IMG/VR virus record: IMGVR_UViG_2917849834_000006
Coordinates: 1-39,408 of that record
Length of the DNA stretch: 39,408 nt
Source of the DNA: a virus
Taxonomy: Duplodnaviria > Heunggongvirae > Uroviricota > Caudoviricetes
Strand: one strand, 5' to 3'
The notes under the pieces are model-generated. The model was not told the DNA's origin. It ran no database searches and saw nothing but the letters and a program-made list of their open reading frames with translations. Made by a program: the position numbers and the translations under genes. Of the stretch, positions 386-39,408 are shown in pieces. Numbering within the stretch: position 1 is the stretch's first letter; the number at the start of each line of letters is the position of its first letter.

Positions 386-1609
386 ATGGCGCTGTCTGAT
401 GCGTGGTTGCGTTCAGTCGTTGGAAAGGAACGTGATAAGGTTTTGGTTAAATCCGATCGTGATGGTCTGTCTGTCAGAGTATCACCGAAAGGTCGCGTAG
501 TGTTCCAATATCGTTATCAATGGGCAGGGAAAGGTGAGCGCCTTGATATCGGAACTTACCCGGCAACTGGATTAAAAGAGGCCAGAGAAGAGGTTATCCG
601 TCTCCGTGGTGAACTCGAGTCAAACCGCAATCCACGATTAGTCAAGCAGGCTGAAAAACGAAAAGCTACTGAAGCCATGACGGTAGAGTCTGTGATCCGT
701 GCCTGGTATGAAGCATATTGTGTAAAAAATAAAAAAGGTTCTGAACAGATACTCCGCTCGTTTGAGCTGCACCTGTTCTCTAAAATCGGGAATATCCCTC
801 ACGATGCAGCTACATTGCATGATTGGTTAGAAGTCCTGGAGCCTCTTAGCACTAAGACTCCAGCAATAGCAGACCGATTGCTAATTAACGCAAAGCAGGC
901 CCATGTCTGGGCGTATAAGAGAAAGCTCATTGAAACTCGCCCGCTGTCGGATATCACGGGTAAAGATATGGATATCCGTAAAGGTCAGAAGAAACGGTTT
1001 CTGACACATGATGAAATTAAAATCCTTTATGCTGCGATCGATGGTTCTCGAATGGTTCCTAAATACCGGGCCTTCATTAAACTATTGCTGCATTTTGGCT
1101 GCCGTAGTTCAGAGCTAATTACCGCCAGGGTGGACGATTTTGATTTCATTAATAAAGTATGGACTGTACCACCAGAACGACATAAGACTGGGGAGATAAC
1201 AGGCGAACCGCTAAAGCGGCCCATTATTGAACCGGTTGAAGAGCTTATAAAGTACGCTATTTCTATGAACAATGGTTCCGATATGCTTTTTACTAAGGAA
1301 GGAAGCAGGGAACCCGTTGGTCGGACATCATTGCAGTCGCTGCCTTACAATTTAATGCAGTACGCATGGCGGCGTTTGGGGTATCAATTCCCTCATTGGT
1401 CTCTTCATGATTTGAGGCGAACAGCACGAACAAACTTTTCTGATCTTACTGCGCCTCATATTGCAGAAATAATGCTAGGTCATAAACTGCCAGGGGTATG
1501 GCAAGTTTATGACAAGAGCGATTATCTAGAAGAACAGCGTAAAGCCTACCAGGCATGGTGGGAGAGAGTTGAATCGATCGTTACTTGTACTAACTCAGAC
1601 ACCAACTGA
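386..1609 (+). CDS. int: Phage tyrosine integrase (P4-like family)
   Basis: 407-aa ORF with RBS; C-terminal catalytic region HDLRRTARTNF…LGHKLPGVWQVYDKSDY typical of tyrosine recombinases; position next to the host junction. Confidence 0.9.
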   Translation: MALSDAWLRSVVGKERDKVLVKSDRDGLSVRVSPKGRVVFQYRYQWAGKGERLDIGTYPATGLKEAREEVIRLRGELESNRNPRLVKQAEKRKATEAMTVESVIRAWYEAYCVKNKKGSEQILRSFELHLFSKIGNIPHDAATLHDWLEVLEPLSTKTPAIADRLLINAKQAHVWAYKRKLIETRPLSDITGKDMDIRKGQKKRFLTHDEIKILYAAIDGSRMVPKYRAFIKLLLHFGCRSSELITARVDDFDFINKVWTVPPERHKTGEITGEPLKRPIIEPVEELIKYAISMNNGSDMLFTKEGSREPVGRTSLQSLPYNLMQYAWRRLGYQFPHWSLHDLRRTARTNFSDLTAPHIAEIMLGHKLPGVWQVYDKSDYLEEQRKAYQAWWERVESIVTCTNSDTN

Positions 1610-6971: not shown

Positions 6972-7804
6972 ACAGTTTAACGGCAAATAATCGTTTGTCG
7001 CAACAGCTGGTGGTCAGTGTCGCTGAACACCTGTTGTTACGGCATGAATGCAGATTACCAAATCACCTGGCTGTAAGTAACCACAGAGAACTTTACCTGA
7101 CTGTGGGGGGCGAGTTGTGCAGGAACTTAACCGCTGGTTTCGTGACGGAAGAGGGCTTTATGTCCATGTTATTCGTTGGGAGCCAGAAACACAGCGCGTT
7201 ATCTATCTTCGCAAAGACTACCCGCATGAGTGCTTTAGTCCTTTGTGGAAATTCAGGCGTGATTTTGTTGAGTGTGAAGGACCACCAGCACATTGATTCT
7301 GCCATTCTGGGACGTTACACTGTTCAGGCACCTTATAAAGCGGGTGCCGGGATTGGCGTCCTGGAATTGCATACGGCGACAATTGGCGCGTTAGCGTCTT
7401 TTTTGTTGCTACAACTCAGCTATACCCAAATTATGGTGGGCTGGGTGGGGGCACCGAAAGGTGCGCCGGTTTCCGTATGCGCCGGTTACGCCAACCCTGC
7501 TCAGTTCACCACCAGCGAAATTGGCGTTTCCGGTGGTGGAAGTTATCCATTGCATACGGAGGCTGCCATCATGGCTACTGTCCCAGCCCTCTCTCGTCTG
7601 AATGATGACGACTTACATAAACTCAGTTATGTAACAACTGCACTACGTGCTCTGCGCAAGGTAACTCTTTCGGATCCGCAGGCGCATCAGGTTCTGGTAG
7701 AAACCCTTCTTAACTTGCAGGCTGAACGTATTCGTCTGGCGGATAAGGCTAATTTTCATATTCACCGTCTCCTTAATATCAGCGGAGGGCATCGTCATGC
7801 TTAA
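6968..7804 (+). CDS. Hypothetical protein (early right operon)
   Basis: 278-aa ORF with overlapping stop/start coupling; an alternative-frame protein-like ORF at about 7078-7260 leaves the reading frame in this segment uncertain. Confidence 0.4.
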   Translation: MNSLTANNRLSQQLVVSVAEHLLLRHECRLPNHLAVSNHRELYLTVGGELCRNLTAGFVTEEGFMSMLFVGSQKHSALSIFAKTTRMSALVLCGNSGVILLSVKDHQHIDSAILGRYTVQAPYKAGAGIGVLELHTATIGALASFLLLQLSYTQIMVGWVGAPKGAPVSVCAGYANPAQFTTSEIGVSGGGSYPLHTEAAIMATVPALSRLNDDDLHKLSYVTTALRALRKVTLSDPQAHQVLVETLLNLQAERIRLADKANFHIHRLLNISGGHRHA

Positions 7805-30932: not shown

Positions 30933-33900
30933 ATGGGTAAAGGCAGCAGTAAGGGGCATACCCCGCGCGAAGCGAAGGACAACCTCAAATCCACGCAGTT
31001 GCTGAGTGTGATCGATGCCATCAGTGAAGGGCCGGTTGAAGGTCCGGTGGATGGATTAAAAAGCGTGCTGCTGAACAGTACGCCGGTGCTGGACAATGAG
31101 GGGAATACCAACATCTCCGGCGTCACGGTGGTGTTCCGGGCAGGTGAGCAGGAGCAGTCACCGCCGGAGGGATTTGAATCCTCCGGCTCCGAGACGGTGC
31201 TGGGTACGGAAGTGAAATATGACACGCCGATCACCCGGACCATCACGTCGGCAAACATCGACCGTCTGCGCTTTACCTTCGGCGTGCAGGCACTGGTGGA
31301 AACCACCTCAAAGGGTGACCGGAATCCGTCGGAAGTCCGCCTGCTGGTTCAGATACAGCGTAATGGTGGCTGGGTGACGGAAAAAGACATCACCATTAAG
31401 GGCAAAACCACGTCGCAGTATCTGGCCTCGGTGGTGGTGGATAACCTGCCGCCGCGCCCGTTTAATATCCGGATGCGCAGGATGACGCCGGACAGCACCA
31501 CAGACCAGCTGCAGAACAAAACGCTCTGGTCGTCATACACCGAAATCATCGATGTGAAACAGTGCTACCCGAACACGGCACTGGTCGGCGTGCAGGTGGA
31601 TTCGGAGCAGTTCGGCAGCCAGCAGGTGAGTCGTAATTATCATCTGCGCGGGCGCATTCTGCAGGTGCCGTCGAACTATAACCCGCAGACGCGGCAATAC
31701 AGCGGTATCTGGGACGGAACGTTTAAGCCAGCATACAGCAACAACATGGCCTGGTGTTTGTGGGATATGCTGACCCATCCGCGCTACGGCATGGGGAAAC
31801 GTCTTGGTGCAGCAGATGTGGATAAATGGGCGCTGTATGTCATCGGCCAGAATTGCGACCAGTCGGTGCCGGACGGTTTTGGCGGCACGGAGCCGCGCAT
31901 CACCTGTAACGCTTACCTGACCACACAGCGTAAGGCGTGGGATGTGCTCAGTGATTTCTGTTCGGCGATGCGCTGTATGCCGGTATGGAACGGGCAGACG
32001 CTGACGTTCGTGCAGGACCGACCGTCGGATAAGGTGTGGACCTATAACCGCAGTAATGTGGTGATGCCGGATGATGGCGCGCCGTTCCGCTACAGCTTCA
32101 GCGCCCTGAAGGACCGCCATAATGCCGTTGAGGTGAACTGGATTGACCCGAATAACGGCTGGGAGACGGCGACAGAGCTTGTGGAGGACACGCAGGCCAT
32201 TCTCCGTTACGGTCGTAACGTCACGAAAATGGATGCTTTTGGCTGTACCAGCCGGGGGCAGGCACACCGCGCCGGGCTGTGGCTGATTAAAACGGAGCTG
32301 CTGGAAACGCAGACCGTGGACTTCAGCGTGGGCGCAGAAGGGCTGCGCCATGTACCGGGTGATGTTATTGAAATCTGCGATGATGACTATGCGGGGATCA
32401 GCATTGGCGGGCGCGTGCTGGCGGTGAACAGCCAGACCCGGACGCTGACGCTCGACCGTGAAATCACGCTGCCATCCTCCGGTACCACGCTGATAAGCCT
32501 GGTTGACGGGCAGGGGAGTCCGGTCAGCGTGGAGGTTCAGTCCGTCACCGACGGCGTGAAGGTGAAAGTGAGTCGGGTTCCTGACGGCGTTGCCGAATAC
32601 AGCGTGTGGGGGCTGAAGCTGCCGACGCTGCGCCAGCGCCTGTTCCGCTGTGTGAGTATCCGTGAGAACGATGACGGCACGTATGCCATCACTGCCGTGC
32701 AGCATGTACCGGAGAAAGAAGCCATCGTGGATAACGGGGCGCACTTTGACGGCGACCAGAGCGGAACGGTGAACGGTGTCACGCCGCCCGCGGTGCAGCA
32801 CCTGACTGCAGAAGTCACCGCAGACAGCGGGGAATACCAGGTGCTGGCGCGCTGGGACACGCCGAAGGTGGTGAAGGGGGTGAGCTTTATGCTTCGCCTG
32901 ACCGTGGCAGCGGATGACGGCAGTGAGCGGCTGGTCAGCACGGCCAGGACGACGGAAACCACATACCGCTTCAGGCAACTGGCGCTGGGGAACTACAGGC
33001 TGACAGTCCGGGCGGTAAATGCGTGGGGGCAGCAGGGGGATCCGGCGTCGGTATCGTTCCGGATTGCCGCACCGGCAGCGCCATCGCGGATTGAGCTGAC
33101 GCCGGGCTATTTTCAGATAACCGCAACGCCGCATCTTGCCGTTTATGATCCGACGGTACAGTTTGAGTTCTGGTTCTCGGAAAAGCAGATTGCGGATATC
33201 AGGCAGGTTGAAGCCAGCGCGCGTTATCTTGGTACGGCGCTGTACTGGATAGCCGCCAGTATCAATATCAAACCGGGCCATGATTATTATTTTTACATTC
33301 GCAGTGTGAACACCGTTGGCAAATCGGCATTTGTGGAGGCTGTTGGCCAGCCGAGTGATGATGCATCCGGCTATCTGGATTTTTTCAAAGGAGAGATAGG
33401 GAAAACCCATCTGGCTCAGGAGTTGTGGACGCAGATTGATAACGGTCAGCTTGCGCCTGACCTGGCTGAAATCAGGACGTCCATTACGGATGTCAGCAAT
33501 GAAATCACGCAGACCGTCAATAAGAAACTGGAAGACCAGAGTGCAGCGATCCAGCAGATACAGAAGGTTCAGGTTGATACAAATAATAACCTGAACAGCA
33601 TGTGGGCTGTGAAGCTGCAGCAGATGCAGGACGGACGCCTTTATATCGCGGGTATTGGTGCCGGTATTGAGAATACCCCTGACGGTATGCAGAGTCAGGT
33701 GCTGCTGGCGGCGGACAGGATTGCGATGATTAATCCTGCGAATGGCAATACAAAGCCGATGTTTGTTGGTCAGGGCGATCAGATATTTATGAATGAAGTG
33801 TTCCTGAAATATCTGACGGCTCCCACCATTACCAGCGGCGGTAATCCTCCGGCATTTTCCCTGACACCGGACGGGCGGCTGACGGCGAAAAATGCGGATA

Positions 33901-34415
33901 TCAGCGGTAACGTGAACGCGAACTCCGGGACGCTCAACAATGTCACGATTAATCAGAACTGCCGGATTCTGGGAAAACTGTCAGCCAACCAGATTGAAGG
34001 CGATATTGTTAAAACGGTGGGAAAAGCCTTTCCGAGAAATAGCAGTTATGCCAGCGGTACAATAACGGTCACGGTGTACGATGACCAGGCTTTTGACCGT
34101 CAGATAGTAATCCCCCCCGTTCTGTTTCGCGGTGGTAAGCATGAAAACTTCAACAGCAACAACCAACAGTCATACTGGTATTCAACCTGTAAGCTGCAGG
34201 TGCTGAAGAACGGACAGGAAATCTTTCAGCAACCCGCGACGGATGTCAGCAGGGTATTTTCATCAGTCATTGATATGCCTGCCGGACACGGCCATGTCAC
34301 CCTGACTTTCAATGTTTCTTCATATGGTGCAAATAACTGGACGCCAACGACCAGTATCAGCGACCTTCTTGTTGTCGTGATGAAGAAATCAACAGCCGGC
34401 ATCAGTATCAGTTGA
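30933..34415 (+). CDS. J: Tail tip host-specificity protein J
   Basis: 1160 aa; N-terminal and central regions closely match lambda J as recalled; C-terminal receptor-binding region present. Confidence 0.95.
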
Positions 34416-34467: not shown

Positions 34468-36531
34468 GTGAATATGGCAGTACAGATTTCAGGTGTGCTG
34501 AAAGACGGTGCAGGAAAACCGATACAGAACTGCACCATTCAGCTCAAAGCAAAACGTAACAGCACCACAGTTGTGGTGAACACGGTGGCCTCAGAAAATC
34601 CGGATGAAGCCGGACGTTACAGCATGGATGTTGAGTATGGCCAGTACAGCGTCGCCCTGCTGGTTGAAGGTTTTCCGCCTTCACATGCCGGGACCATCAC
34701 CGTGTATGAGGATTCTAAGCCGGGGACATTGAATGATTTTCTGGGCGCTGCAACAGAAGATGATGTTCGTCCGGAGGCACTGTATCGTTTTGAAAAGATG
34801 GTGGAAGAGGCGGCACGCAACGCTGAAGCCGCCTCTCAGAGCGCAGCGGCAGCAAAGAAATCAGAAACAGCAGCGGCATCGTCCAGGAACGCGGCGAAAA
34901 CATCAGAGACGAATGCAGGTAACAGCGCGAAAGCGGCAGCTTCTTCAAAAACAGCCGCACAAAATGCAGCAACAGCGGCAGAACGTTCAGAGACAAATGC
35001 CCGTGCGTCAGAGGAAGCCTCCGCAGACAGTGAAGAGGCTTCCCGCCGTAATGCAGAGTCAGCCGCTGAGAATGCCGGAATCGCCACCACAAAAGCGCGG
35101 GAGGCCGCAGCAGACGCAACAAAGGCCGGGCAGAAAAAGGATGAGGCTCTGTCGGCAGCGACACGAGCTGAAAAGGCGGCAGACCGCGCAGAAGCCGCAG
35201 CGGAAGTGACTGCAGAGCCCTATGCGAATATAGTGCCGCCGCTGCCTGATGTGTGGATACCGTTTAACGATTCACTGGATATGATTACGGGGTTTTCGCC
35301 ATCATATAAAAAGATTGTTATTGGTGACGATGAAATAACAGTGCCAGGCGACAAGATTGTTAAGTTTAAACGAGCTTCAACAGCAACATATATCAATAAG
35401 TCAGGCTCGTTTGTTGTGGCAGATGTTGATGAAGCCAGATTTGAAAAGTCTGGTTTACTGATAGAAGGGCAACGTACTAATAATTTCATTAACAGTAATG
35501 CACCAGAAGCATGGAACTTTAATAATAAACGTCTTGATGTAAACAGTAATCTCGATCCATTTGGATTCAGCTATGGTGTTCTGACGTATAAAGATTCATC
35601 TGATACCGGGCCTGTGACGCTCATTTCAACAGGAACAGGTCGGGTTATCTCTGTGGAAAATGGTGACTCTGTTACAATTTCTGCCCGATTCAAGGGAAAC
35701 GGAATCAGGGCGAGAATGCGCATATCGAAGCTGAATGATGATGGCGCAGGGAATACTTTTATAGCAGATGCGCTTCTGGATTTGAGCAATCTGACATTAA
35801 AAAGTGATGTGCTTTCGTCATCTTTCGTAGTGGAAAACAGCGGATGGATATTCTTTCAGTCAACCTATAAATCTGATTCATCACAAAATATATATGCCCG
35901 AATAGAAATGTATCAACAGGAAGGCAATGAAATTAAGGTCGGTGACAGTATATCAATGGCAACGCCTCAGGTTGAGAAAGGAACTGCTGCATCATCATTC
36001 ATCATAACAGGGGGAACACCGGCAACGCGAGCCAGTGATATTGTGACAATCCCATTAAATAAAAACTGGGTGCGAAGGCCACTGACAGTACTGACAGAGT
36101 GCAGTGTCTCATGGGACGTTATGCCAAATACCACGGGCGCAGCAAGGATATTAAATATTTCCACTACGGGAGACTCAACAGATATAGCTGACCAGAGTTA
36201 TATGTATCTTGGTTTTATCTCAAAGGGCTCAAAAGCAATCATCACGAATGGAAAGGGAACTATGGCAGAGATAAAAAGTGACATTGCTGTTTCAGGGCGA
36301 AAAAACATTATTGGCGGAAGGTTTAAAGAAGACGGGAGTCTGTCTGTAGTGGTAAATGGAAATATCGGTGGTGCATCGGTTTCGCCTTATAATGATACAA
36401 GATATCTTAATGGTTTCATGAATATAGGGGGGCAATCCTCCACCGGAGACAGGCATTTATTTGGACATGTCAGAAATCTGCGAATCTGGCACAGGGAATT
36501 GAATGACAGGCAATTAAAAGAGGCCGTATGA
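34468..36531 (+). CDS. stf: Side tail fibre protein, chimeric (lambda Stf-like N-terminus, divergent low-GC C-terminal domain)
   Basis: N-terminus MAVQISGVLKDGAGKPIQNCTIQLKAKRNSTTVVVNTV… resembles lambda Stf; Ala-rich coiled-coil middle; C-terminal ~400 aa unrelated and lower GC. Confidence 0.85.
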   Translation: MNMAVQISGVLKDGAGKPIQNCTIQLKAKRNSTTVVVNTVASENPDEAGRYSMDVEYGQYSVALLVEGFPPSHAGTITVYEDSKPGTLNDFLGAATEDDVRPEALYRFEKMVEEAARNAEAASQSAAAAKKSETAAASSRNAAKTSETNAGNSAKAAASSKTAAQNAATAAERSETNARASEEASADSEEASRRNAESAAENAGIATTKAREAAADATKAGQKKDEALSAATRAEKAADRAEAAAEVTAEPYANIVPPLPDVWIPFNDSLDMITGFSPSYKKIVIGDDEITVPGDKIVKFKRASTATYINKSGSFVVADVDEARFEKSGLLIEGQRTNNFINSNAPEAWNFNNKRLDVNSNLDPFGFSYGVLTYKDSSDTGPVTLISTGTGRVISVENGDSVTISARFKGNGIRARMRISKLNDDGAGNTFIADALLDLSNLTLKSDVLSSSFVVENSGWIFFQSTYKSDSSQNIYARIEMYQQEGNEIKVGDSISMATPQVEKGTAASSFIITGGTPATRASDIVTIPLNKNWVRRPLTVLTECSVSWDVMPNTTGAARILNISTTGDSTDIADQSYMYLGFISKGSKAIITNGKGTMAEIKSDIAVSGRKNIIGGRFKEDGSLSVVVNGNIGGASVSPYNDTRYLNGFMNIGGQSSTGDRHLFGHVRNLRIWHRELNDRQLKEAV

Positions 36532-36818: not shown

Positions 36819-37104
36819 ATGGATATAAGCCCCTTACTTCATGCACTTTGTGCTGTAGCTGCGCAGATACTGGTTGGTCTTTTTACCGGAAACTGGGTTT
36901 ACGGTGCGATAGCCGGTTGTACGTTCTTCATTGCGCGTGAACACACCTAGGCAGAATATCGCTGGATTGAAATGTTCGGGCATGGCAAGCGTATGAATAT
37001 GCCGTGGTGGGGCGGTTTTGATCCACGTGCTTGGGATGTGGCAAGCCTGATGGATTTTGCGGTGCCGGTGGTAGCGTGTCTGCTGGTCTGGCTGTTTATC
37101 CGTT
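36819..37104 (+). pseudogene. Small membrane-protein ORF interrupted by an in-frame TAG (amber) after codon 43
   Basis: Strong RBS AAGGAGG before the ATG at 36819; MDISPLLHALCAVAAQILVGLFTGNWVYGAIAGCTFFIAREHT-TAG-AEYRWIEMFGHGKRMNMPWWGGFDPRAWDVASLMDFAVPVVACLLVWLFIR; frame stays protein-like after the stop. Confidence 0.45.
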
Positions 37105-37112
37105 AAACATAA

Positions 37113-37213: not shown

Positions 37214-38590
37214 CTATGATATTCCTGAAATATCCTCTTCAAGTTCTTTTACTGATTTCGCAATTTTAAATTTAAATTTCCTCTCTATTTCACTATTGCT
37301 AAGTTTTTTTTCCTTCTCTTTCCCTATCCACATAGAAACAAGTTCTCGTTTCTGAGATATATGTAGATTGTCAAAGTTAGGTATGTATTTAAAAGTCTCC
37401 GCTCTACCTCTGCGGAGTTCATAGAAAGTTTTAATCAAAGACTTTGGTTTTATTTCTGATAAAAGGCCGAATCGGCGGATAAGATTATTGATAGTATGAT
37501 TAACAGAGCGAAGTTGAGCTGTTGAGGTTATTTGTGAGAAGTACGATACCCATCCCAATCGTTTACCTTCAAACACACATCCCGTAATTCTGAGATTTAG
37601 TTTCCACTGACAATATGCAACAGCTCGTTCTTTATCGCGCTTACTTTTAGCTTGTAGTAGAGCGTGCCTATATGCAGTAAAAATTTTTGCTAAGGATGAC
37701 TCAAATCTAAGAATGCTCTCATGTTTTATCAATAATTCTCGATTTTCTATGTGGTATCCCAAAAAGTTAAAACTTTCATCCAAGCTGCCTACTTTGGATT
37801 TTGAGTTCTCTTCATTTAATGGATGTGGGTTTAAATTTAATGATTGAAGCTTATCAATGATATGAGATGTTATTTTTGTTGCTTGATATTTGGGCGTTAA
37901 AATAAGAATGTCATCAACGTATCGCATGTACCATATGCCATGCATTTTATTGATTTCATCATCGAAATTAGATAGTGATATTTCAGCTAAAATGTTTGAT
38001 ATCGCTAATCCCTGAGGTACTCCTCTGGTATTATTAGGGATACCTTTGCTTCCTGTACTTCCACTTACAGTAGGTACGATTAATGATGATGTTATTAACT
38101 GTCTAATTTCTTTTTTTCTAATCTTATTTTTTATTGCATTAAATATCAATTTATGTTCAATTGAAGGATAGAAACTTTTAAGATCTATTTTTGCATATTC
38201 AGCATATAGACTGCAGTTTAATGCTTCTTTCAATGAGTCAATTACTGTATGTGGTAGTTTTAATCTGGAATTAGGATATATTTCCGTAAGGCATTCACAG
38301 AGAGCCCTAAGAGTAATTCTGTCCCTAGCAGTTGGTATGGAAATCTGTCTGGGGGTAGAGTTAGCCCCTTTAGATATTAATTTTTCTTTATATGCTGTAA
38401 ATTTATAATTGCCAGAATTAACCTTTTCAAAAATGAAAGTGATCTCATTGTTTATTGTTAAATCAAGTTTTGATGGGCGAATCCGATCTATGCCAATCGC
38501 TCCTGATTCTTTGATTTTTTCAGTGTATACTTTTAGAAGGTTTTTTTTCGAGAATGACTTTTTAAAAATTCTACTTGCAGTCATAGTCAA
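37214..38590 (-). CDS. Reverse transcriptase (prokaryotic defence-type; retron/Abi/DRT-like, family unassigned)
   Basis: RT motifs read in translation: PRQISIPTARDRITLRAL, IDLKSFYPSI, GVPQGLAISNILAEI, WYMRYVDDILIL (YVDD catalytic box), FLGYHI; C-terminal extension of about 150 aa; about 30% GC; track start is TTG, an ATG lies at 38584. Confidence 0.9.
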   Translation of the reverse strand: MTMTASRIFKKSFSKKNLLKVYTEKIKESGAIGIDRIRPSKLDLTINNEITFIFEKVNSGNYKFTAYKEKLISKGANSTPRQISIPTARDRITLRALCECLTEIYPNSRLKLPHTVIDSLKEALNCSLYAEYAKIDLKSFYPSIEHKLIFNAIKNKIRKKEIRQLITSSLIVPTVSGSTGSKGIPNNTRGVPQGLAISNILAEISLSNFDDEINKMHGIWYMRYVDDILILTPKYQATKITSHIIDKLQSLNLNPHPLNEENSKSKVGSLDESFNFLGYHIENRELLIKHESILRFESSLAKIFTAYRHALLQAKSKRDKERAVAYCQWKLNLRITGCVFEGKRLGWVSYFSQITSTAQLRSVNHTINNLIRRFGLLSEIKPKSLIKTFYELRRGRAETFKYIPNFDNLHISQKRELVSMWIGKEKEKKLSNSEIERKFKFKIAKSVKELEEDISGIS

Positions 38591-39113
38591 TCCAAAGATA
38601 TATTAATGGTAGTATATAAAGTGCGGCAGTAATAAATATTCGAAGTAATATCCATAAATTAACAATTATTTTTTCTTTTTGTGTGGGGAGCCTCGTCGTA
38701 AGTCCAACTTGAGTTACCCTTGAAACTTTATCATCTATCTCACGATGATTCTCAACCTCATTGAGCAAATTAAAATATTTTTCTTTCTGTTCAGGAGTTA
38801 ATTGTTGGCCGTTGGTAATGTCAAAATAGAGTCGCTGTAGTGCAATATAATTCCTTCTCATGGCTATTGCTCGACCACGAAAATCTAGGTTAGATACGAT
38901 CAGAGAAATACCTAGTAGAGCCACTGAAAGTATCGCTGCAACGATATCTGTATTATCTCCTAGAACTTTTGGAAATCGTAACGTTACAATTGAAAGCACC
39001 GCACTCAATATAGCATACCAAACGAGGATTAATTGAGAGTGTTTTTCAAGCCATTCTAGTCGATGGTGCGCTTGGATACGGGCTTTATATGTAAACCAAA
39101 TATTGTCATGCAT
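38571..39113 (-). CDS. Small multi-pass membrane protein co-transcribed upstream of the RT (candidate effector)
   Basis: 180 aa; three hydrophobic helices (about residues 27-45, 57-77, 152-176) around a charged middle region; AGGA RBS; ends 8 nt before the RT ATG; same low GC. Confidence 0.7.
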   Translation of the reverse strand: MHDNIWFTYKARIQAHHRLEWLEKHSQLILVWYAILSAVLSIVTLRFPKVLGDNTDIVAAILSVALLGISLIVSNLDFRGRAIAMRRNYIALQRLYFDITNGQQLTPEQKEKYFNLLNEVENHREIDDKVSRVTQVGLTTRLPTQKEKIIVNLWILLRIFITAALYILPLIYLWIDYDCK

Positions 39114-39134
39114 AAAAGATCCTTTTTTAAAAGC

Positions 39135-39275
39135 GGAAGGGGCAGGATATATTGGAACCGTTGAACATCCTGCCCGGCAGGATCAGTGAGCATAAGCTCA
39201 ACAGTAAAATATTACTGTTCATTATCAGAGCCGCCCTTGCATGCGCAAGAGGAAAAACCTGCCCCATCCTTTTGA
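39135..39275 (-). ncRNA. Candidate structured non-coding RNA upstream of the membrane-protein/RT operon (possible msr-msd-like element)
   Basis: Nested inverted repeats: GGGCAGGAT (39140-39148) with ATCCTGCCC (39167-39175); GGAAGGGGCAGG (39135-39146) with CCTGCCCCATCC (39258-39269); small hairpins CTTGC-gcat-GCAAG and CAGTAA-tatt-TTACTG; no ORF. Confidence 0.25.
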
Positions 39276-39408
39276 ATTATTACAATTTAATGATCTTAAA
39301 GTCAATACAAGTGAATGGTGTCCAGGGATGATGAACTTAATGAACAAACCACTCGTCAGCAGACTCCCAAGTATCTTTCAGAGTTTCCTGAACAACAGTT
39401 TTAGCTGA

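Follow-up and report, generated by a model that had tools for sequence, protein, structure and literature searches.

The inverted repeats near the right end of an Escherichia coli lambdoid prophage very probably belong to the template RNA of a DRT10 (UG17) defence module

We analysed the whole of the virus record IMGVR_UViG_2917849834_000006 (39,408 nt, hereafter the window), which is a lambdoid prophage of Escherichia coli. At its right end the minus strand carries, in this order, a dinI-like gene, a 223-nt intergenic stretch (39114-39336), a SLATT_5 gene and a reverse transcriptase (RT) gene. A first-pass annotation made from the letters alone had described positions 39114-39408 as a region rich in inverted repeats without a convincing open reading frame (ORF), and had proposed a retron-like msr/msd RNA. 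The intergenic stretch is indeed non-coding, but positions 39337-39408 turned out to be the 3' end of the dinI-like gene. We consider it very likely that the region encodes the non-coding RNA (ncRNA) of a DRT10 (UG17) anti-phage defence module, which the prophage carries as cargo at its right end. The family, the fold and the mechanism have already been published (2025-2026), and the window holds an allele of this known system. The only new element is a natural two-base polymorphism in the predicted template, together with its frequency in sequenced genomes. What the window gains is a correct annotation of the RNA gene with its promoter, helices, template and predicted product (Table 1). Nucleotide n of the RNA corresponds to window position 39270 - n.

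Table 1. Features of the DRT10 locus and of the surrounding prophage. SL, stem-loop; aa, amino acids.
Feature	RNA nt	Window position	Strand	Remarks
DRT10 (UG17) ncRNA, 137 nt	1-137	39133..39269	-	Eco3DRT10 numbering, fold, covariance model
Sigma-70-type promoter of the ncRNA		39276..39305	-	TTGACT, 18-nt spacer, AATAAT with preceding TG
Basal stem SL1, 5' strand	1-12	39258..39269	-	GGAUGGGGCAGG; partner nt 124-135
SL2	19-36	39234..39251	-	3/7 pairs compensatory; U-G pair invariant
SL3	51-70	39200..39219	-	AACAGUAA/UUACUGUU; 7/8 pairs compensatory
SL4	71-82	39188..39199	-	GAGC-UUAU-GCUC; 2/4 pairs compensatory
SL5	87-103	39167..39183	-	AUCCUGC-CGG-GCAGGAU; 3-nt loop; 3/7 pairs compensatory
Template loop	104-123	39147..39166	-	20 nt unpaired, from SL5 to basal stem; GUUCAACGGUUCCAAUAUAU
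Predicted template A-B	107-115	39155..39163	-	CAAC-GGUUC; plus strand reads GAACCGTTG
Predicted realignment segment A'	116-119	39151..39154	-	CAAU; identical to Eco3DRT10 A'
Basal stem SL1, 3' strand	124-135	39135..39146	-	CCUGCCCCUUCC
SLATT (SLATT_5) two-transmembrane effector gene		38571..39113	-	Pfam SLATT_5 4.9e-28; PADLOC RTasSLATT 1e-56
UG17/DRT10 RT gene		37214..38584	-	456 aa from ATG at 38584; PADLOC RT_UG17 1.9e-158
dinI-like gene, 3' end		39337..39408	-	Upstream same-strand neighbour; window end cuts the gene
Integrase ORF		386-1609		Prophage gene
J-type tail tip gene		30933-34415		Prophage gene
Tail-fibre gene		34468-36531		Prophage gene

UG17, or DRT10, is a tripartite system of an ncRNA, a SLATT protein and an RT that makes protein-primed tandem-repeat complementary DNA (cDNA) (PMC12632851; 10.64898/2026.04.29.721553). 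In the window we found a UG17 RT, an adjacent SLATT_5 gene, a structured RNA, a loop in which a predicted template (A-B) is followed by a realignment segment (A'), and a YVDD active site together with a C-terminal serine in the RT. The RT scored 526 bits against the PADLOC model RT_UG17 and covered positions 1-429 of the 429 in the profile, the runner-up being Drt3a with 125 bits. On other PADLOC models it reached 87 bits (Drt2), 70 bits (Drt9) and 49 bits (RT_VI), the last being the sole retron-type-looking name among the 25 models listed. With the RT of Eco3DRT10 (OKX54664), the DRT10 system studied in most detail, it shares 388 of the 397 residues available for comparison (98% identity), and like that enzyme it has 456 aa when counted from the ATG. 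The YVDD active site lies within MRYVDDILIL and the protein ends in ...DISGIS, with Ser456 as the last residue. Neither Y222-D225 nor S456 varied among 20 homologues, the most distant of which was 59% identical. The start of the RT gene at 38584 overlaps the SLATT stop at 38571 by 14 nt, and a SLATT-like ORF was located 5' of the RT in 39 of the 42 loci examined. A mechanical ORF call starts the RT from a TTG two codons upstream of the ATG (38584-38590) and yields 458 aa. GenBank OKX54664 has the same two additional N-terminal residues, which Tang et al. 2025 (PMC12632851) flag as a misannotation.

The dense complementarity upstream of the RT operon that the first-pass annotation had reported was confirmed, as all of the listed repeats are present and the region folds beyond what shuffled sequences allow. 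Two 9-nt repeats, GGGCAGGAT and ATCCTGCCC (39140-39148 and 39167-39175), are 100% complementary with a spacing of 18 nt, and a second copy of GGCAGGAT is found at 39176-39183, one base away from the earlier placement at 39177-39184. The imperfect long-range pair GGAAGGGGCAGG/CCTGCCCCATCC (39135-39146 and 39258-39269) is 12 nt long and 92% complementary with a spacing of 111 nt. Inside this bracket an internal hairpin is formed by AACAGTAA and TTACTGTT (39200-39207 and 39212-39219), and the fold shows two more hairpins.

The register of the RNA was set with the positions quoted in PMC12632851 and with E. coli genomes that have the exact published template. The Eco3DRT10 RNA is 137 nt long, with the template at nt 107-115 and A' at nt 116-119 (PMC12632851). 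We aligned the region with five other E. coli genomes, of which CE10 and MS20654 carry the exact Eco3 template CAATGATTC followed by CAAT. The published numbering puts nt 1 on the first G of the basal-stem sequence GGAUGGGGCAGG (39269), and nt 137 (39133) falls two bases beyond the complementary CCUGCCCCUUCC. The 12-nt long-range inverted repeat is therefore the basal stem of the RNA.

Upstream of the RNA a consensus scan found a promoter with 10/12 matches plus the TG, and its -10 hexamer ends 6 nt before RNA nt 1. A -10-like hexamer (TAGAAT, TAAGAT or TATAAT), often after a TG, is present in most of the 27 homologous loci, its end lying 6-7 nt upstream of the RNA start. The ncRNA of UG17-A is transcribed independently from its native promoter (10.64898/2026.04.29.721553). 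A U-tract is located 3' of the basal stem. The SLATT ATG follows the RNA after 19 nt and is preceded by a Shine-Dalgarno sequence, AAGGA, at 39120-39124. The SLATT and RT genes are probably transcribed by read-through from the predicted ncRNA promoter, because the gap between the RNA and the SLATT start codon is only 19 nt long and contains the Shine-Dalgarno sequence. The element had been suspected to be cut off by the window edge, but both the RNA and the promoter are complete in the window, and only the dinI-like gene is cut. In RefSeq there is no annotation between the dinI-like and SLATT genes.

Next to its position, the RNA is characterized by its fold. The minus strand of the 223-nt intergenic stretch had a fold z-score of -3.24 against dinucleotide shuffles and the 137-nt core one of -4.58, and in both cases none of 200 shuffles was as stable. 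A covariance model (R1) was built from six E. coli copies and the minimum free energy (MFE) structure of the 137-mer, and was searched against 44 loci obtained from an RT alignment over one-genome-per-species contigs. R1 matched upstream of SLATT and on the same strand in all 27 of the 27 distinct loci with an RT at least 50% identical (E = 9e-10 to 1.6e-30), so the repeats are conserved alongside the RT. The R1-positive loci come from Xenorhabdus, Photorhabdus, Buttiauxella, many Pseudomonas, Stutzerimonas, Stenotrophomonas, Bordetella and one metagenome-assembled genome.

The folding and covariance check across homologues, which the first-pass annotation had proposed, supported five helices. 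In the alignment of 27 sequences 96.6% of the pair cells held standard pairs, as compared to 49-55% when the partners were slid. Double-sided changes were detected in 24 of 37 pairs, compensatory pairs were present in all five helices, and 0/500 shuffles reached any of the observed measures. The basal stem was changed on both sides in 9 of its 11 pairs, with 97.6% of its cells paired. As the R1-derived alignment is fitted to the model, RNAalifold was also run on an independent MAFFT alignment; it recovered all five helices, with 17/34 pairs compensatory. A weak helix of the MFE structure, nt 38-44 with nt 110-116, overlaps the template and was dropped; RNAalifold did not recover it.

The transcribed strand is the SLATT/RT strand, because the U-G pairs are invariant. 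The plus strand was rejected as a candidate for the RNA: its fold was less defined (centroid only -39.1 kcal/mol vs MFE -61.5 kcal/mol), the invariant U-G would become C-A, and all of the homologue matches are on the SLATT/RT strand.

Some of the linkers were more conserved than the helices. The sequences GGUUYUUCCUCU, GGGCGGYUCUGAUAAU, CACUGAUCC and GGGAUGUUCAA are near-invariant from E. coli to Bordetella, the regions concerned being nt 13-18, 37-50, 83-86 and 101-109. These single-stranded linkers are likely RT contact sites.

More distant relatives gave a different result. R1 found no match in the alphaproteobacterial UG17 loci L028-L043, the RTs of which are 31-35% identical. This fits the published observation that UG17 ncRNA models work only within subtypes, and these loci presumably carry another ncRNA subtype. 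A SLATT-like ORF is located upstream of the RT in L028-L038, L041 and L042.

The unpaired loop between SL5 and the basal stem has the same number of positions as were mutated in the template loop of Eco3DRT10 (PMC12632851). The sequence GGGAUGUUCAA is nearly invariant across the homologues. The A-B-A' arrangement reads CAAC-GGUUC-CAAU at nt 107-119 and starts 3 nt after SL5. A repeat of this kind of at least 4 nt was found in 24 of the 27 homologue template loops, as compared to 6.0 +/- 2.2 (max 12) in shuffled loops, and nearly all of the A-B-A' loops have (U)CAA(N) from loop position 3-4 with a period of 9-11 nt. We infer that SL5, which lies directly 5' of the template loop, is the template-boundary element. 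In Eco3DRT10, scrambling of SL5 abolished the repeat products (PMC12632851).

In comparison to the Eco3DRT10 template CAAUGAUUC (CAAU-GAUUC-CAAU), the window template occupies the same positions but carries C instead of U at nt 110 and G instead of A at nt 112. The predicted repeat unit of the window allele would be GAACCGTTG, as compared to GAATCATTG in Eco3DRT10. The identity between A and A' is 4 nt in Eco3DRT10 and 3 nt in the window allele, where the fourth position would be a wobble. A change of nt 110 in Eco3DRT10 appears in the product, and mutations in five positions, namely the first three bases of A, C116 and A117, were lethal to defence (PMC12632851). These five bases are unchanged in the window allele.

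Among 5,426 complete E. coli genomes the RNA is carried by 188, with the window template in 154 and the Eco3 template in 34. E. coli has at least two natural template alleles, and the experimental work concerns the one that is rarer among sequenced genomes. In total the RNA was found at 190 places in the 188 records, as two of the genomes have two copies. Because its chromosomal positions differ widely among the strains, the data suggest that the DRT10 cargo moves on prophages integrated at several sites. In E. coli H10 and H16 (NZ_CP082087.1, NC_020163.1) the matching DRT10 region is divided in two, an IS2 transposase being annotated in between, and in the ST131 strain 4993 the SL5 loop has a G-to-A change.

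The steps of the mechanism are taken from Eco3DRT10 (PMC12632851) and UG17-A (10.64898/2026.04.29.721553). In these homologues a discrete RNA species accumulates, which acts in trans, is bound by the RT and serves as the template for cDNA (PMC12632851; 10.64898/2026.04.29.721553). In Eco3DRT10 nine nucleotides of the loop are copied repetitively, and the synthesis is primed by the C-terminal serine of the RT and not by the 2'-OH of a branching G. The product is a kilobase-long single-stranded DNA (ssDNA) that is RNase-insensitive and has a protein-protected 5' end (PMC12632851). According to the literature on near-identical and related systems, defence needs all three parts.

By analogy, the RT of the window would bind the RNA and prime DNA synthesis from the hydroxyl group of its own Ser456. 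It would then copy CAACGGUUC (nt 107-115), with SL5 as the boundary. The growing 3' end (...GTTG) would unpair and re-anneal to CAAU (nt 116-119), probably with a dG-rU wobble in the fourth position. Repetition of the cycle would give a long single-stranded (GAACCGTTG)n that is covalently joined to the RT. The level of the cDNA, set by the host exonuclease SbcB and by phage SSB-like proteins, may control the SLATT effector and lead to abortive infection.

Several points weigh against the assignment as stated here or limit what can be read from it. That the cDNA is linked to SLATT is proposed in both of the papers (PMC12632851; 10.64898/2026.04.29.721553), which disagree on whether phage infection lowers or raises the first-strand cDNA. 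The RNA ends, the cDNA and the defence of the window allele are predicted from homologues. Furthermore, the window allele has a competing register, GUUC-AACG-GUUC, with a period of 8 nt and a homology of 4 nt, and it is the two substitutions of the window that extend this competing repeat from UUC to GUUC. Use of the 8-nt register would give the repeat CGTTGAAC. The competing register is not the conserved one but could lower the precision of the repeats, an effect reported for cryptic re-annealing sites of Eco1DRT10 (PMC12632851). With the two-base difference and the competing register, the repeat unit and the precision of the window allele are to be taken as predictions.

The last point is an alternative fold of the RNA. 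In it GGGCAGGAU (nt 95-103) pairs with AUCCUGCCC (nt 122-130), and GGCAGG (nt 7-12) pairs with CCUGCC (nt 89-94), so that the basal 5' strand is joined to the 5' arm of SL5 and the 3' arm of SL5 to the basal 3' strand. In the 137-mer this fold has -53.9 kcal/mol vs -57.2 kcal/mol for the conserved one, a gap of only 3.3 kcal/mol, and it becomes the MFE structure once the 5' flank is included.

The first-pass annotation had put the 9-nt repeats with their 18-nt loop first among its hairpins. The repeats are present, but the 9-bp hairpin was rejected as a conserved structure: across the homologues its positions were paired in 70.9% of the cases vs 69.5% in shuffles, no more than base composition predicts, and it had 4 double changes vs 4.1 expected. 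The conserved fold instead pairs ATCCTGC with GCAGGAT (39167-39183) and has the 12-nt long-range pair. As the hairpin showed no excess of covariation, the alternative pairing is a by-product of the similar sequences of SL5 and the basal stem in the lineage of the window, and at most a lineage-specific conformer.

The SL5 arms mimic the arms of the basal stem in the E. coli and Xenorhabdus lineage, and the alternative fold that results would enclose the template in a hairpin loop. It could be speculated that the sequence and register of the template are under diversifying selection and that the alternative fold controls access to the template as a switch particular to this lineage, which we regard as rather unlikely. 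Diversifying selection would be conceivable if SLATT reads the repeat in a sequence-specific way or if phage counter-defence targets the repeat.

The same two folds could be read in another way, with the region as a cis-acting leader of the SLATT-RT mRNA that switches between two exclusive structures, the basal stem with SL5 or the 9-11-bp hairpin around the loop, and gates read-through into the toxic SLATT gene or its translation, templating being secondary or absent. With only 19 nt between the RNA end and the SLATT ATG there is no space for a second promoter, the basal stem is followed by a U-tract, and the four similar GGCAGG/CCTGCC arms stand out. The folds are also within 3.3 kcal/mol of each other, with the alternative as the MFE structure in a longer transcript. 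However, the alternative pairing lacks support from covariation (70.9% vs 69.5% in shuffles; 4 vs 4.1 double changes), and the conserved fold keeps the template in an open loop. The conserved A-B-A' arrangement is not explained by a pure leader model, and the RNA of the homologues is discrete, acts in trans, binds the RT and templates cDNA. We consider it very unlikely that the element is primarily a leader.

The retron explanation, which the first-pass annotation had proposed, fared even worse. It takes the inverted repeats as a1/a2 around msr-msd, with priming from the 2'-OH of a branching G and an msd hairpin that is copied to multicopy ssDNA (msDNA). It is true that a structured core flanked by a 12-nt inverted repeat immediately precedes an operon of a membrane effector and an RT, and that several of the homologous RTs carry the database label 'retron-type reverse transcriptase'. 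However, the RT belongs to UG17, with 526 bits on RT_UG17 vs 49 bits on RT_VI, and the gene order is ncRNA-SLATT-RT. The core consists of four hairpins of 4-8 bp and a 20-nt loop, without a long msd stem. In Eco3DRT10, whose RT is 98% identical, the repeats are primed by protein and copied from 9 nt of template, and the product is RNase-insensitive and protein-protected at the 5' end (PMC12632851).

We also searched Rfam 15, and at the gathering score no family matched the region, the only matches in the window being C4 and isrK elsewhere; as the Rfam retron models cover few retron types, this null result is weak when taken alone. At E <= 10 only chance matches to SNORD43 and MEG8 were found in the region, and the DRT10 RNA is outside Rfam 15. 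What stands of the msr/msd proposal is that a structured ncRNA gene belongs to the RT and most likely carries a template; that it is a retron we consider extremely improbable. Least probable, and close to negligible, are chance palindromes or leftover repeats of a prophage end or attachment site without any RNA function: the region does lie near the right end of the prophage, next to prfC, but this account is already refuted by the covariation, and the z-scores (-3.2 and -4.6), the prophage/host junction beyond the dinI-like gene, and the presence of the element with SLATT-RT across unrelated contexts and genera, with compensatory changes, all speak against it.

The surroundings of the DRT10 module are those of a prophage. 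The dinI-like gene is outside the module. Its 3' end in the window reads ...DEWFVH followed by the stop codon, and its RefSeq annotation was taken from the 99.3%-identical locus in E. coli E400634 (L001). A full-length homologue matched Pfam DinI with 6.5e-20. In E. coli E400634 the prophage adjoins prfC, and comparison with this locus places the prophage/host junction past the dinI-like gene and not at the repeat region. The dinI-like gene is annotated as frameshifted in E. coli 01G17CRGN001 and in the ST131 strain 4993.

Two further observations were made in the window. The Rfam matches in the early region of the prophage were isrK at 7328-7404 (plus strand, 61 bits), followed by the C4 antisense RNA at 7429-7516 (plus strand, 81 bits), which together are a P1/P7-type antisense immunity pair. 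Between the tail-fibre genes and the RT there is a small hydrophobic ORF on the plus strand (36819-37106) with an in-frame stop at codon 44. Its homologue in E. coli E400634 is intact (95 aa, no Pfam match) and has Gln at codon 44, and the ORF of the window is probably a pseudogene.

The system most similar to the one described here is Eco3DRT10 of E. coli 703491 (RT OKX54664; PMC12632851), which shares with the window the order ncRNA-SLATT-RT with overlapping SLATT and RT genes, as well as the 137-nt frame, the stem-loops, the 20-nt template loop and the A' segment CAAU. UG17-A of Escherichia sp. E3659 (Sanchez-Nieto et al. 2026, 10.64898/2026.04.29.721553) is likewise tripartite. Its structured RNA of about 143 nt has its own promoter and is located directly upstream of SLATT, its basal SL1 is essential, and its template loop has two short direct repeats, as in the window type. 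The template itself differs, since ACUUAUUACU gives a 7-nt AGTAATA repeat, and the likeness to UG17-A is one at the level of the published description.

DRT9 (UG28) and DRT2 (UG2) are also class 2 UG/Abi RTs with an upstream structured ncRNA, in which, as in DRT10, a short template is read repetitively. The DRT9 RNA has been described as structurally similar to the DRT10 RNA (PMC12632851). DRT9 differs in that a poly-U tract is copied to poly-dA with priming from a tyrosine, whereas in DRT2 rolling-circle copying builds a gene and is primed from the RNA 3' end. Retrons, like DRT10, have an ncRNA that is located 5' of the RT and closed by a terminal inverted repeat, and they provide defence of the abortive-infection type, but they differ from the window element in the RT clade, the msd hairpin, the branching-G priming and the fixed length of the msDNA. 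DRT10 is a compact bacterial RT that adds tandem repeats with its RNA in the manner of telomerase, and a kinship with the ancestor of telomerase has been proposed for it. Telomerase RNA likewise has a short template with a downstream realignment segment and a stable helix as 5' boundary, and is read iteratively to give tandem repeats. The analogy is a functional one only, as the window type would prime from a protein serine and not from a chromosome end, and its RNA is far smaller.

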